DNA of 64,000 nt, taken from the IMG/VR virus record IMGVR_UViG_3300020182_000007. One strand, written 5' to 3'. The notes under the pieces are model-generated. The model worked only from the letters and a program-made list of their open reading frames with translations. It was not told the origin of the DNA and did not search any database. Made by a program: the position numbers and the translations under genes. This document shows, piece by piece, positions 38,408 through 45,407 of this stretch (position 1 is its first letter; each line of letters begins with the position of its first letter). The stretch is from a virus.

Positions 38408-38583
38408 TTAGTGTATTGTTTTTTAATTATAGTTAAATATAATCATTTAAAATGAATCGGAAAAACTTTTAGTGAATTATTTTCAAAAAGTTATTAACAA
38501 TTCTTATTAAAGAGAGTTTCTCTTTGTTTTAATTATAGTATAAATATAAACAAAATAAACGACATAAAAAAATCTGGAGTGAT

Positions 38584-39348
38584 TTATTTTTGATATTTTT
38601 TATCCCAAGCGTTAATTCTTTTTAGAAGCTCTTCTATTGTTATTGAAGATTCAGCATTCTTTGATACATTATCATTATGCCTCATTAATCTGCAGTTAGC
38701 AGGGTGGCCTAAAATCTTAGGATCAATATTATTAATTAGACCCATTTTACAACTGTACATGTGATCTCTACTAATACCATTTAGATTGTTTCCTCTGTTT
38801 GAAGCTGAATAAAACCCATGTTCATTAATTAGATCTAAATTAAATTCTTCTGGATAATCAAATACGTTAAAATTAAAAGAAGCGTCTGCTCTATAATTCT
38901 GTAGCTCAGTTCTGTTTCTTCTTTTAAATTCTTTTATACATTCAGAACTACAATACATTTTATCTCTCGTGTGTTCAAATTCTTTAGAGCAGTTTTTACA
39001 GGTGCAATTGCGTGTGTTATTTCTAGATAGAGATTCTGCTATCTTTTTCTTAGTTTCTTCTGATCTTTTACCTCTATAATTAGCACAAGATCTTGAACAG
39101 AAATTCTTTTCTTTCTTTTTACCAGGTCTGTATTCTATGTCAACTGAATTTGAACATTTTTCACATGAACATTCTACTGTTTCTTTTATATGCTTACCGT
39201 GTTTATCATTATAAGATTTACTAATAGTATTAGACATCTTTTTCTTCCAATCTGACTGATCTCTGTGTTTCCACCTAACATGATTCGCTTTAATCTTCTT
39301 GTTCTCAAAGATTTCTCCGCACTCGTTACATTTTATTACTTCTTCCAT
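38584..39348 (-). CDS. Free-standing HNH homing endonuclease with Cys-rich DNA-binding repeats
   Basis: C2H2-like CNECG...HVRWKH, FCSRSC and YCSSEC fingers, and C-terminal SRDHMYS...NCRLMRHNDNVSKN. Confidence 0.8.
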   Translation of the reverse strand: MEEVIKCNECGEIFENKKIKANHVRWKHRDQSDWKKKMSNTISKSYNDKHGKHIKETVECSCEKCSNSVDIEYRPGKKKEKNFCSRSCANYRGKRSEETKKKIAESLSRNNTRNCTCKNCSKEFEHTRDKMYCSSECIKEFKRRNRTELQNYRADASFNFNVFDYPEEFNLDLINEHGFYSASNRGNNLNGISRDHMYSCKMGLINNIDPKILGHPANCRLMRHNDNVSKNAESSITIEELLKRINAWDKKYQK

Positions 39349-39401
39349 ATTATATATATCTCATCTTTGTGGAGAATCTTCTAATCGAACCATATTTTTT
39401 A

Positions 39402-39438
39402 AACAAAAAAAGACCTACAAATTAATGTAGATCTTTTA
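39402..39438 (-). terminator. Terminator downstream of the tRNA
   Basis: Minus strand AAAGATCTACA-TTAATT-TGTAGGTCTTT-TTTT. Confidence 0.8.
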
Positions 39439-39440
39439 AG

Positions 39441-39742
39441 TGGAGAATATCGGAGTCGACATCTGTAATCTCTGACTTTCGTTAGAGTGTCGGACTATAT
39501 CATCATCTCATAGAGATGTTGGACGCTAATGTGGTTATTAAGAGAACTTTATCTCTCCACTAGTCTCTGAACCTTCTTAAGATGTATCTTAAGCTTGGCT
39601 GCTGATTGTCATATCATTTCTGACTTAGATTTCCAGCAATTCATCCAATTATTCGATAAGTATCACTACTTAAAGCGGCGCGTAATCACCGATGACCTCT
39701 TGCGTGCAAGGCAAGCGCTCTAGCCAGCTGAGCTAATTCCCC
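39441..39742 (-). tRNA. tRNA-Ala (UGC), split by an intron; exons 39742-39688 and 39459-39441; CCA not encoded
   Basis: Spliced sequence GGGGAATTAGCTCAGCTGGCTAGAGCGCTTGCCTTGCACGCAAGAGGTCATCGGT|TCGACTCCGATATTCTCCA forms a full cloverleaf with G3:U70 and anticodon TGC. Confidence 0.93.
39460..39687 (-). ncRNA. Group I self-splicing intron (228 nt) inserted in the tRNA T-loop (54/55)
   Basis: P AATTGCTGGAAA, Q AATCAGCAGCC, R GTTCAGAGACTA and S ATGATATAGTCC in order; exon ends in U, intron ends in G; exon CGGU pairs with intron GCCG (P1 with U.G). Confidence 0.92.
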
Positions 39743-39790
39743 CTGATTATCTTAAAGTCTTAATCTTGACTAGATGTTATATATCCAATT

Positions 39791-39899
39791 AAAACTAAAT
39801 GTGTTATGGGTAGAGTTCGACCTCCTTTTCATAGGTGTAGGGTTGGGAGGAATACTGAACTCGCCATTTCTATACTCTACGCATAACACATTTAGTTTT
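39791..39899. repeat. 109-bp element bounded by 26-bp inverted repeats (25/26 match)
   Basis: aaaactaaatgtgttatgggtagagt (39791-39816) versus actctacgcataacacatttagtttt (39874-39899). Confidence 0.9.
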
Positions 39900-40257
39900 C
39901 TTGTTTATATAAGCTTGCAATATATGCAGTCACTCCATAATCAAGTAGGATATATGTCTTACCATCTATTCCCCAGTTCTCAGGATTATGAAGATCGCAG
40001 TTATTAAAACCAAACTCGGGAATCAATTCCTTGATACGAATAACCACATTATTTGGTATTGATGAGACTGTATTATATCTTTTCTGACAAACGATACCCA
40101 TCCACGCCCATTTTAGCTCCGCCAAAGAGATAGTATCGCGGTACTTATCCCAAATCTTCTTTTCATTAAGTCCTTGTAAATATCCTTTTCTACTTACTGG
40201 AATCTTAATAACTACATTCCTTAGAATGAAAACGAGTCTTGTTGAATATTTAATCAA
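39892..40257 (-). CDS. Minimal protein-kinase-like fold protein
   Basis: VVIKIP (VAIK-like), E, DLHNPENW (catalytic loop-like) and LLDYG (DFG-like). Confidence 0.6.
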   Translation of the reverse strand: MIKYSTRLVFILRNVVIKIPVSRKGYLQGLNEKKIWDKYRDTISLAELKWAWMGIVCQKRYNTVSSIPNNVVIRIKELIPEFGFNNCDLHNPENWGIDGKTYILLDYGVTAYIASLYKQEN

Positions 40258-41300: not shown

Positions 41301-42455
41301 TCATATTGATTGTTTAAAAATTTTTGTTTCTATTTCTTTAATTTTTTGTGCTATTTGAGGACCTTTTACACCAAACTCTTTTATTACCTTGTTTCCGTCA
41401 GTACTTGGTTTGTATTTTAAGAATGCTCTTATTAGCTTAAGATCTAATCTATTTATCTTTGAGAATACAATAATGTTGTTTTTATCCAATACCGTTCTTT
41501 CGAATTCTTTGTATAAATCAAAAACTCCTTCAGGTTTAAATGTTAATAGACTTTTTAAGAATATGACGCAATTTACTTCATCACTAGAGAAAGTCATTCG
41601 ATTCATCTCTTTTTTAATCAACTCACGGTCGTTGTTACCAAATATTGTTGCTAACTGTACTAACCATAGGCTTGACTCTATAAAATTCTCGCTAACTTGT
41701 AGATTAGGAAACATTACTGGCCAGAGGTTAAACTCGCTTACCATTTTTAGGTAGTCTTTTGTCTTCTTTGCGGATTCAATTGATTTTTTAAACTCATCTC
41801 TAATTCTCTCAGGACTAACACCCTCTAAATTATTATCGGTTAAAATAGCATCTGCAGTTTCTTTCTCAAGCCTTGATCCTGTTTTACCCGCAAATCGAAG
41901 GGCTCTTAACTTTCTTAATGGATCCTCAGCAAATCTTTCTGCGGCGATTCCAACAGTTCTAATCTTTTGATCTTGAATATCTCTTAAACCACCTACTAGA
42001 TCTATAACTTCACCCTTACTAATATCATAGAAAAGAGCATTAATTGTTAGGTCTCTTCTGAGAACGTCTTTATCTATTGTTGAGTAATTTACACCTTCAG
42101 GTCGTCTGCCACTTCCGATATCCTCGCGAAAGGTTGCGATCTCAACTCCATTTCTATCTGAAGGAATCTGTACGATAACGACTCCAAATTGCTGCCCAAC
42201 TTCTCCAATTGTTGAGTATCCAGCAGCTGTTACTATTTTAACAACCTCTTCTGGAAAAGCATCAGTTGCTAAGTCAAAATCCTTTGGCTTTTTACCAAGT
42301 ATCGCATCACGAACTGCACCTCCTACAATATAGAGCTCTTTGCCGTTCTCTTTAAATAGTTTATGTAGGTCAATAACATCAGACGGCACGTTGAGCTTAA
42401 GTGTACTCTGTGCTTCAGTTAGCAACTTAAATTCTGTATATGTTTTTATCTTCAT
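41301..42455 (-). CDS. cca: CCA-adding tRNA nucleotidyltransferase / poly(A) polymerase family
   Basis: VGGAVRD, DFDLAT, RRDLTINAL, EDPLRKLRALRFA and SPERI; leader MKIKTYTEFKLLTEA. Confidence 0.9.
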   Translation of the reverse strand: MKIKTYTEFKLLTEAQSTLKLNVPSDVIDLHKLFKENGKELYIVGGAVRDAILGKKPKDFDLATDAFPEEVVKIVTAAGYSTIGEVGQQFGVVIVQIPSDRNGVEIATFREDIGSGRRPEGVNYSTIDKDVLRRDLTINALFYDISKGEVIDLVGGLRDIQDQKIRTVGIAAERFAEDPLRKLRALRFAGKTGSRLEKETADAILTDNNLEGVSPERIRDEFKKSIESAKKTKDYLKMVSEFNLWPVMFPNLQVSENFIESSLWLVQLATIFGNNDRELIKKEMNRMTFSSDEVNCVIFLKSLLTFKPEGVFDLYKEFERTVLDKNNIIVFSKINRLDLKLIRAFLKYKPSTDGNKVIKEFGVKGPQIAQKIKEIETKIFKQSI

Positions 42456-42486: not shown

Positions 42487-43776
42487 TTAAAATGTCCTTT
42501 CTCCTTCGTAAATTCCTTTCATTACTGGAAATCTTAACGATTCTTCTCCTTTATCGTTCTTTGTGGTTTCGAAGTACTGCACTGTTATTGTTTTTCCTAA
42601 GATTTGATCAGGGTTTTCAAAGAAGTATCTTTTTTGTTCGTGAGAAAATCCAGAGCCAACTTGAACCCTGTTTCCTTTATGTTCAACCACAACATTTTTG
42701 AGCATTAACTCATCAACCTCTTTTCCTTCTACAATAACTCTATTTACTGCGTTTTCAAGATCTACAACAACGTATTCGTCATCAAAGAATTTCTTAACTT
42801 TAAGAATATCATTAGAACGTTTTCCTTGATAGGTATCATCTTTGCGTAACATTAGTCCTTCCCAACCCTCGTTCTTAGAGATCTCCATCATATCTTCTAG
42901 TAGATCATCGCTTCCTATTCTCTGGTCTAATACCTTGATAAATTTATTGTCTAATGATATAGATTTAAGAGATTCTAGTCTTTCACTTAGAAGTGATGTA
43001 GATACTTCTTCGTTAAACTCTGTTAATGTTAATAGATCAAACATAAAATATACAGGATTTTCGATTGTGTGATCTTTTCTCTTGATCTCTTTAATAATTC
43101 CTTGAAAATCTTCGTTTCCATCTTTATCAGTCATACAAATCTCTCCATCAATAACCATATTTGTAAGTCCTAATTTCTGAATAGAAGGCTTTAAAGAATC
43201 TAATGTTAAGAACGGCTTTCCAGCTCTACTAAAGAAATTAACATTTCCAATCTCGTCAATTATTGTTAAACAACGAACACCATCTAATTTGCGGCTAACG
43301 TACCAGTTATCATTCCAATCTACTTTCTTTGAGGTTTTTTCGTTATATGTGTTTGCTAACGCTACGTCAAACGTTGGAATTAACCCTGGAACTACTTTGT
43401 TAATCATAGAAGTCGTAGAACGTGTCTTTAGGTTTCTATCAATAATATTCCAAATAAGATCTGCGTATACATAGTTCTCTTGTACAAATCTATTGACGTT
43501 TGCAATTGCAGCATGTCCTGTACAAACTCTATTATTTAAGTCATCTAATAAACCGAAGAAATCTCCATAAGTATTTGGATGACCCATAAGATCTGAATTC
43601 TTTTTACAGTTCTTAGAAGTTACTCCATATTGCTTATAAGTATCATAAGTATATAGAAGAGCCTTCTTAACGCTATCATACTGGGTGTACGTCTTTAATA
43701 CATCAAGCTTGTCTGTGTTTGAGTTAGTTGTGTTTGATTGTTCAACGAAATCATAAATTAATTGTAAGTCTGTCAT
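42487..43776 (-). CDS. lig: ATP-dependent DNA ligase
   Basis: KLDGVR (KxDG), DGE, YFMFD, EGLMLR and LKVK motifs plus an OB domain. Confidence 0.95.
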   Translation of the reverse strand: MTDLQLIYDFVEQSNTTNSNTDKLDVLKTYTQYDSVKKALLYTYDTYKQYGVTSKNCKKNSDLMGHPNTYGDFFGLLDDLNNRVCTGHAAIANVNRFVQENYVYADLIWNIIDRNLKTRSTTSMINKVVPGLIPTFDVALANTYNEKTSKKVDWNDNWYVSRKLDGVRCLTIIDEIGNVNFFSRAGKPFLTLDSLKPSIQKLGLTNMVIDGEICMTDKDGNEDFQGIIKEIKRKDHTIENPVYFMFDLLTLTEFNEEVSTSLLSERLESLKSISLDNKFIKVLDQRIGSDDLLEDMMEISKNEGWEGLMLRKDDTYQGKRSNDILKVKKFFDDEYVVVDLENAVNRVIVEGKEVDELMLKNVVVEHKGNRVQVGSGFSHEQKRYFFENPDQILGKTITVQYFETTKNDKGEESLRFPVMKGIYEGERTF

Positions 43777-43922: not shown

Positions 43923-45407
43923 TTAATCCTTTTCAAATATTATGCCTCCATGATTATCTCCCTTTGATTCAACTGGTAGATACTCGCTGTCAAATGAAGT
44001 TGCCATAAATGTTTTAAATGGATTAACCGAACATCCTATTCTTTCCATAAATTTACGATTTATTAGGATAGGAGTTGATTTATCAGTCCTATCTCCTAGA
44101 CAAACATAGACGTCGTTATAAGTTTTACCAGAAAATGTAATATCTAATTCAATAATAGGTCTTCTATGGGTATCTTCTCCAACCTCTGGTTCAGAGAATC
44201 CAATAATATCATTTTCGAATTTCTTATCTCCAAGTTCCCATTTGACTGATTTTTTATCTTTGGATATATCGATCTTATCATAAGTTAGAGTGTTTGCTGC
44301 TCCTCCATTACCAGTATCGAATTTTGCTACTATATCTCCGATACCCTTAATACCTACGGCTTCTCTAAATCCTACAGTTTTTCTAGATCTTATCCAATTT
44401 TCTTTATCTGCAAGAAAATCAATAACATCCTTTACTACATCTACTCCGGTAGCTTTTTTAAGACCTTCCGTTCCAGGAGATGCATTAACCTCAAGCACGT
44501 AGTTTTTACCAGTCTTTGCGTCTACTATAATATCAACGCCACACCAGTTACATCCAATAGCTTTAGCGCTTTCAATTGCAATTTGTTTTTGTTCGGGTGT
44601 TAGCTCAGTTTTTTCAACAGTTCCTCCTAGTGTATAATTAGTTCTAAAATCATCTCCAACTTTATTTCTTCTCATGTAACCTAATAGAACTGAATCAGTT
44701 TCTGACGGAACTGGAGAGTTAAATCTACGAGTCAATACATGAATTCTTAGATCGTATTCTGTTTCTATTTTTTCTTGAATAAGTAGTTCAACACTAGGAT
44801 TAGCTTTCCATATTGTCTGAATTACCGATTTTAAAGATGTTGATGAATCAACAATAGAAACACCAATACCTTGGGATCCTGATAGCATTTTAAGAACTAG
44901 TGGGAATTTACCACCTATTGCAGCAACTGCACTATCTAAAGATTCTTCGTTATCTATGAGTGACATTTTAGGAATTGGAATTCCAGCGTCTGCTAATATT
45001 TTAGAAGTGGTGTACTTGTTTTCACATGTCATTACTGAATCAAGAGTGTTGACAACAAAGAAATTAGCCAACTCTAATTGTTCAACAATATCTCTAGTAT
45101 ACGTACTTTTAACTATTCCTCTCCTTGTTAAAATAACAGTATCTTCAGAAGATATTTTCATTTTAGATTTATCATCAGAAATAGTAAATGACTCTTTGTC
45201 TTTGTTAAGATCTAATTGAACTGAATCGACGCTAATTACGGCAATCTGAATTCCTTGCTTTTTACATTCAGCAATAATACCAGGAACCGATTTTGACTCT
45301 GTATTTATATTTGAAAGTAAAACTACTTTGGGCTTGTCTTGAGATTTACTTGCTTTTTTAGCTTCGTTAATCACAAAATCTTGATATGATAATATTCTAG
45401 TCGACAT
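43923..45407 (-). CDS. rimK: RimK-family ATP-grasp ligase fused to a retropepsin-like (DTG) protease domain
   Basis: ENKY, FPLVLK..GSQG.GV, QEKI, DLRI, FRTNY.LGG, GVDII and EVNASPG; C-terminal AKFDTGNG and ILINRKFM; leader MSTRILSYQDFVINEA. Confidence 0.88.
   Translation of the reverse strand: MSTRILSYQDFVINEAKKASKSQDKPKVVLLSNINTESKSVPGIIAECKKQGIQIAVISVDSVQLDLNKDKESFTISDDKSKMKISSEDTVILTRRGIVKSTYTRDIVEQLELANFFVVNTLDSVMTCENKYTTSKILADAGIPIPKMSLIDNEESLDSAVAAIGGKFPLVLKMLSGSQGIGVSIVDSSTSLKSVIQTIWKANPSVELLIQEKIETEYDLRIHVLTRRFNSPVPSETDSVLLGYMRRNKVGDDFRTNYTLGGTVEKTELTPEQKQIAIESAKAIGCNWCGVDIIVDAKTGKNYVLEVNASPGTEGLKKATGVDVVKDVIDFLADKENWIRSRKTVGFREAVGIKGIGDIVAKFDTGNGGAANTLTYDKIDISKDKKSVKWELGDKKFENDIIGFSEPEVGEDTHRRPIIELDITFSGKTYNDVYVCLGDRTDKSTPILINRKFMERIGCSVNPFKTFMATSFDSEYLPVESKGDNHGGIIFEKD

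Follow-up and report, generated by a model that had tools for sequence, protein, structure and literature searches.

How a tRNA gene can carry a 228-nt insertion in its T-loop and still yield a tRNA, and how such an insertion can spread, are the questions raised by this locus. It lies in a 64,000-nucleotide stretch of DNA (the window) that forms part of a 148,784-bp IMG/VR virus record, IMGVR_UViG_3300020182_000007, which is about 49% complete and comes from a large aquatic phage. A preliminary description had read the insertion as a group I intron between U54 and U55 of a tRNA-Ala, an observation confirmed by the analysis presented here. It is very probable that the phage transcribes and splices the gene, circularizes the intron and obtains a normal tRNA-Ala. 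Collaborative homing through an adjacent zinc-finger/HNH-like protein, with an autorepression operator at its gene, is favored on balance, and the explanation as a whole, splicing and homing together, is considered probable. The parts of the split gene, all on the minus strand, are as follows.

39778..39785, minus: GATATATA motif upstream of the tRNA gene, a candidate phage (late) promoter judged from copy counts
39688..39742, minus: 5' exon of tRNA-Ala(UGC), G1 to U54, 55 nt with one extra D-loop base
39460..39687, minus: group I intron, 228 nt, ORF-less, terminal (omega) G at 39460; placed by RF00028, splice reconstruction, circle junction and covariation
39674..39682, minus: internal guide sequence, from sequence and compensatory changes at tRNA position 51
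39561..39565, minus: 5' strand of P7, the guanosine-binding helix, invariant in 10 alleles
39531..39560, minus: P7.1-type peripheral hairpin between P7 and P3', a single extended hairpin
39493..39497, minus: 3' strand of P7, from RF00028 and the alleles
39441..39459, minus: 3' exon, U55 to discriminator A73, 19 nt, from splice reconstruction
39405..39437, minus: intrinsic terminator-like hairpin (12 pairs) and U-tract directly after the tRNA

The class of the insertion is given by a profile search, in which the whole RF00028 (group I intron) model matched 39470-39697 on the minus strand with 103.2 bits (E 1.1e-25; gathering score 50), and Rfam also reported a partial tRNA beside the intron. 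The preliminary description had held that tRNA scanners would miss such a gene. This proved correct, as ARAGORN calls no tRNA in the raw window and, when anticodon-loop introns are allowed, returns pseudogene-grade false calls only. Removal of 39460-39687 brings back a tRNA-Ala(UGC) at 39742-39441 with the T-loop UUCGACU, G3:U70 and A73. Eleven 228-nt deletions were tried; five (starts 39457-39461) gave an ARAGORN call, and 39460-39687 was the only one with a canonical T-loop. The host gene is thus a 74-nt tRNA-Ala(UGC), a cloverleaf with a UGC anticodon, whose anticodon arm lies intact within the 5' exon and whose insertion falls at 54/55. CCA is not encoded, with CUU following A73. The 5' exon has 95-98% identity to Bacteroidota tRNA-Ala across exactly its 55 nt, the spliced window tRNA and two Bacteroidota tRNA-Ala genes are 2 nt apart, and the sister allele L256, once spliced, matches one such gene exactly; this similarity supports the intron boundaries. 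The likeness, drawn from a comparison with Bacteroidota tRNA genes only, also suggests a Bacteroidota host. The tail sheath of the phage is closest to those of uncultured huge phages and of Tenacibaculum and Flavobacterium phages. Its commonest alanine codon is GCA (1090 of 2200), and Arg(UCU) is the sole other tRNA called in the whole record. Upstream of the gene, GATATATA is a motif found 33 times on the coding strand and once on the other, with an ATG within 30 nt downstream of 23 copies, and we infer that it is a promoter. The terminator-like hairpin occupies the same position in sister loci.

The architecture of the intron also agrees with the preliminary description, which had noted the ordered P/Q/R/S elements, a U.G pair at the 5' splice site and a terminal G. 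The core consists of P2-P9 plus the extra hairpin between P7 and P3', and P7.1-type hairpins of this kind are common to the phage tmRNA, anticodon-loop and protein-gene introns of the same lineage. In P1, G9 (39679) pairs with U54 and C10-C11-G12 pair with G53-G52-C51, joining exon CGGU to intron GCCG. A P10 of 2 bp only can form in the window between C6-G7 and G57-C56 of the 3' exon.

Scanning viral and metagenome contigs for the pattern, and looking up loci through the neighboring protein, revealed 11 distinct alleles at 54/55, all in tRNA-Ala(UGC) genes of phage and metagenome contigs and 218-231 nt long. Most of these contigs come from IMG/VR or have proteins in common with the window phage; L160 has none in common. 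In an alignment of 10 alleles, 98.9% of 610 cells pair and both sides have changed in 28 of the 61 pairs, against at most 6 in slid controls. The U.G at the 5' splice site is present in all 10 and P1 covaries; for instance, C51-G is replaced by G51-C, a compensatory change between exon position 51 and the guide, in three of them. P3, P4 and P6a covary, P7 and P8 are invariant, and the exon helices covary fully around an invariant G3:U70. Every allele has a G preceding U55. Possible P10 pairs are C56-G in all 10, U55-A in 8 and G57-C in 5.

Directly beyond the terminator lies a second set of features, which bears on how the intron may spread.

39369..39391, minus: degenerate copy of the intron-less target (18/23 match), a candidate operator
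39353..39360, minus: GATATATA motif, 8 nt after the operator-like copy and just before the ATG of the nuclease-like gene
38584..39348, minus: free-standing ORF of 254 aa, candidate HNH-type homing endonuclease, from its zinc fingers and C-terminal residues

The ORF starts 92 bases past the tRNA. In its product, an array of zinc fingers at the N-terminus precedes a C-terminal domain in which D195-H196, N218, N227 and K230 are invariant; the protein belongs to an unannotated family (phrog_23051) of which 461 relatives were found. Identity as an HNH nuclease is suggested but weak. The protein falls in an ESM cluster of which 52% is PF01844 at 0.92, and its C-terminal domain gives a weak match to that of BrxU (VIA Z 4.4, rmsd 3.4, 84 aligned). 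Among 104 members no Pfam HNH match was obtained in this domain, a Foldseek search of the PDB returned nothing significant, and the domain folded alone gives a poor model (pLDDT 42).

Comparison of loci is more informative about the association of this gene with the tRNA. The ORF follows 7 of the 11 intron alleles. Among eight intron-less loci with full-length homologues of 46-68% identity, seven have an intact tRNA-Ala(UGC) directly adjoining the ORF and the eighth has a tRNA 5' fragment only. Five of the seven intact tRNAs have an altered T-arm: A54 and U58 replace U54 and A58 in two (L169:2837-2910 and L356:52-125), one carries U56 and two have a changed T-stem. The remaining two, L352 and L354, keep a canonical T-loop beside the ORF. 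In the cultured phage GAP32, a more distant homologue is one tRNA removed from a tRNA-Ala; others adjoin different tRNAs. In 80 loci around relatives of the DNA ligase gene no tRNA-Ala was found, so a close relative with a plainly susceptible intron-less allele was not among them.

The target-like copy sits between the terminator and the ORF and corresponds to the T-loop plus the 3' strand of the acceptor at the same spacing. At 18/23 it is the best non-self match in the 148.8-kb genome, where the next best is 15/23, and a copy (12-19/23) precedes all 13 close homologues examined. In L293, which has a 55/56-type intron end, the target copy is again present and the N-terminal zinc-finger module is the same, but it is joined to another nuclease-like C-terminus; this suggests that the zinc fingers are what reads the site. 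By eye, the downstream ORF of L293 and another at L161:1049-1849 are cysteine-rich and nuclease-like with PD-(D/E)xK-like C-termini; both adjoin T-loop introns, and a target-like copy lies before each.

Collaborative homing with putative cleavage is a likely reading of these loci. The nuclease-like protein would bind and cut the T-loop/acceptor end of intron-less tRNA-Ala genes in co-infecting phages; the intron would make its own allele immune, and repair would copy both intron and nuclease gene. The target-like copy at the nuclease promoter would serve as an autorepression operator. Alternatively, the intron may splice while the ORF has nothing to do with its spread, which would have been vertical, by reverse splicing or by recombination, and the target copy would be a remnant, a piece of the tRNA 3' end duplicated when the ORF inserted. 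Two intron alleles, L151 and L155, have no nuclease gene alongside and fit this account, as does the further tRNA 3' fragment behind the ORF in L169, which resembles an insertion scar; the nuclease activity itself is only putative. A leftover duplication, however, sits poorly with a copy that keeps both ends and the spacing of the target but not the T-stem pairing, and that stays by the promoter motif in homologues as distant as about 46-48% identity. Moreover, the copy in L169 and L356 is closer to the canonical target than the phage's own altered tRNA, and the intron occurs almost only in alanine-accepting RNAs. We therefore hold an unrelated ORF to be possible, if rather doubtful. Collaborative homing explains the pattern of the loci best, and also the bias to alanine-accepting RNAs.

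The preliminary description had further argued that GGUUCGA, being shared by almost all tRNAs, could in principle let the intron move between tRNA species, and had suggested a search for other T-loop insertions. Besides the 11 alleles, that search returned two introns at 55/56, each on one contig. One interrupts a tRNA-Pro(UGG) at L322:3060-3286 (+), matches at 121 bits and is 79% identical to the window intron over its full length; the other is in a tRNA-Ala(UGC) at L296:484-706 (+), with a tRNA-Ala 5' fragment just upstream. Movement between tRNA species thus seems to occur, but it looks rare, as 11 of 11 introns at 54/55 are in tRNA-Ala. The alanine bias suggests that the target is picked by a nuclease reading the tRNA-Ala 3' end rather than by the shared motif. 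The same lineage also occurs in viral tmRNA T-loops (three subsites), in tRNA-Met anticodon loops and in protein genes. In the viral tmRNA of L009/L152, the intron follows a U at the same T-loop position as in the window. Subsites 2, 3 and 7 of the T-loop are occupied by group I introns in many viral tmRNA genes, those of L009/L152/L154, L039, L061, L073, L120, L125, L126, L140 and L280-L315; in L152/L154 a terminator, a GATATATA motif and a cysteine-rich nuclease-like ORF lie downstream of the tmRNA intron locus. The anticodon loop of tRNA-Met(CAU) carries related introns in L025, L026, L028, L368 (phage TH47) and L373 (phage Muenster). Those of the uncultured phages contain ORF-sized inserts and measure about 710-770 nt; those of the two cultured phages are unannotated.

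Other searches were less productive. Among cultured phages, the best relatives examined lie in nrd, terminase and psbA genes or tRNA-Met anticodon loops, none in a T-loop. A pattern scan of GTDB genomes gave one match, which was spurious, and 401 Bacteroidota genomes held one relative only, in an anticodon loop. A search by pattern for introns with a shorter core at 54/55 turned up no split tRNA, and one for a 59/60 site found tmRNA-like and protein-gene loci only. Three intron trees of about 160-190 columns were poorly resolved and left transfer direction and origins unsettled. A single origin of the 54/55 introns, with p-AU values of 0.042 and 0.059, was neither established nor plainly rejected, and a clade of tRNA-Ala 54/55 and tmRNA position-2 introns was rejected (p-AU 5e-5). 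Tentatively, large Bacteroidota phages may hold a mobile pool of T-loop introns that moves among tmRNA, tRNA-Ala and occasionally other tRNAs, and among adjacent subsites, by a change of 4-6 nt in the guide, with a modular family of zinc-finger nucleases as the driving force, recognizing the T-loop and acceptor end that genes for alanine-accepting RNAs have in common. As host tRNA-Ala genes carry the same intact site, the nuclease could then also cut the host chromosome and ferry introns into bacteria.

Evidence for activity comes from public RNA data. Part of the window sequence is present in 16 RNA runs. In one marine metatranscriptome, X8, a 255-nt contig (depth 31.7) has ends that overlap by 30 nt, as expected for a circular 225-nt molecule assembled with 31-mers. 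It runs through the intron to 39460, continues with three bases and resumes at 39681. It has two listed substitutions, and L164 departs from the window over this span by exactly these two; the three junction bases are nt 3-5 of the 227-nt L164 intron, which places the terminal G next to intron base 3. Excision at the predicted 3' site, 39460, followed by circularization is thereby shown for a near-identical relative of the window phage, in one contig from one run, and the 3' boundary drawn in the preliminary description maps there and not elsewhere. The junction may instead reflect a strain with a variant 5' end. End-to-end ligation during library preparation was considered and rejected, as bases 1-2 would then remain. 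The Azoarcus intron likewise forms an L-3 circle after splicing, with release of the added G plus two bases, and 5'-truncated circles of this type are a normal post-splicing product (PMC13168695). We infer that, on the guide, the released G-G-A stands in for the G-G-U at the exon end. In summary of activity, the intron family is conserved and active in natural samples.

In the proposed splicing mechanism, the split pre-tRNA-Ala would be transcribed from the GATATATA promoter to the terminator, as these motifs suggest, and the guide sequence would capture the T-stem 5' strand and U54 as P1. With P1 holding that strand, the T-arm could not fold until splicing. Free guanosine would attack after U54, which would then attack after the terminal G, and the exons would presumably be joined into a normal T-loop. 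The released intron would circularize with loss of G and the first two bases. RNase P, 3' trimming, CCA addition, possibly by a phage nucleotidyltransferase-family gene (41301-42455), and T-loop modification would probably complete the tRNA.

A different outcome would be a ribozyme that excises and circularizes but ligates its exons inefficiently or out of register, for example with a 3' site at G57, leaving little or no working tRNA. No ligated exon junction was seen in the RNA runs, where the 3' exon offers 19 nt and the product differs hardly at all from the host tRNA; uninterrupted tRNA-Ala contigs in these runs were considered as splicing evidence and set aside, as their flanks are foreign. 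No canonical P9.0 pairing before the terminal G was found in the window intron, and the bases after P7 could pair instead so that G57 enters the site. P1 and the T-stem also compete at similar predicted energies (-4.1 vs -4.6 kcal/mol). Nevertheless, the same post-P7 bases recur in unrelated protein-gene introns, no 5' site restores the T-loop if the 3' site is set at G57, and the circle ends at 39460. Truncated circles are what normal splicing leaves, and the full covariation of the exon helices with G3:U70 kept invariant argues for a tRNA that works. Failed or misplaced ligation is thus improbable, and accurate splicing is preferred. An assembly chimera or a chance juxtaposition of tRNA and intron can be dismissed, as nothing beyond the metagenomic and incomplete nature of the source contig speaks for it, and it is already refuted by 11 distinct alleles from separate samples with guides tracking their own exons and by an RNA-library contig (X1 record 1) that holds exon, intron and exon together.

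Several known systems resemble this locus in part. Group I introns have been described in the T-psi-C loop of tmRNA at four subsites, of which position 2, which follows the first loop U, is occupied in Anaerolineae and position 3 in Bacteroidia (PMC11915505). They interrupt the same loop as the window intron, position 2 being the same internucleotide position by our numbering, follow the same U-1 and terminal G rules, are mostly ORF-less and likewise interrupt an RNA that accepts alanine. The core and P7.1 are also found in phage tmRNA introns (L073, 87% over 183 core columns; position-2 L009, 68% over full length). Unlike these, the window intron is in a phage and in a true tRNA with D-arm and anticodon arm. 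The preliminary description had called the T-loop site unusual, which holds for a tRNA, although the tmRNA equivalents mean that it is not unprecedented.

With anticodon-loop group I introns the window intron shares a ribozyme, here predicted to be self-splicing, a tRNA host gene and a length of about 200-230 nt, as well as the L-3 circle of the Azoarcus tRNA intron (PMC13168695). It differs in its T-loop site and its P7.1 hairpin. The four classical bacterial tRNA intron types are of subgroup IC3, published surveys place bacterial tRNA group I introns in the anticodon loop, where the one systematic search tested only eight positions, and a 2014 review located every phage intron known at that time in a protein gene. 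Class IA introns have P7.1/P7.2 hairpins, where the window has one extended hairpin at 39531-39560 between P7 and P3'. BHB introns at D- and T-loop positions of archaeal and red algal tRNAs are removed by a protein splicing endonuclease (PMC13578239); they too occupy a non-canonical tRNA position, whereas the window intron is a ribozyme. For the homing component, T4 mobE with the nrdB intron (PMC3984707) also combines an ORF-less intron with a free-standing nuclease-like gene, and T4 SegB is another nuclease gene tied to a tRNA locus, within a tRNA cluster. I-TevI has an operator at its own promoter (15/20 nt) through which it is autorepressed (PMC2988022), comparable to the 18/23 target-like sequence at the nuclease promoter in the window. 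Here, in contrast to known collaborative homing systems, the putative target is in the T-loop/acceptor of a tRNA and the candidate nuclease belongs to an unannotated family.

Our search, largely of openly accessible papers, found no published report of a group I intron in a tRNA T-loop. The locus places a known ribozyme class at a new site, probably alongside a partner nuclease, and links tmRNA T-loop introns to tRNA introns. Since such split tRNAs are invisible to ARAGORN, phage tRNA inventories are undercounted. Competition of the splice-site helix and the T-stem for one strand means that splicing should gate RNase P recognition and modification of U54/U55. In addition, the unannotated protein has a predicted 23-bp target, a putative operator and apparent naturally resistant alleles, making a direct nuclease assay straightforward.

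Other features of the region can be described briefly. A 118-nt hairpin (39783-39900) with a near-perfect 26-bp outer stem lies directly upstream of the tRNA promoter motif; it is present once in the genome and was not seen in other fetched loci. Genes for a poly(A) polymerase/CCA-adding family protein (41301-42455), an ATP-dependent DNA ligase (42487-43776) and a RimK-like ligase (43923-45407) are found just upstream of the tRNA, which has no encoded CCA. A lone T-loop-like motif at G000:58064 (window about 45786), where ARAGORN calls no tRNA, is possibly a decayed tRNA. Lastly, an intergenic repeat of about 70-80 bp is present at 38435-38545 and at about 20 other places in G000; it is probably an early promoter repeat, and its relatives lie upstream of DNA ligase genes in other phages.
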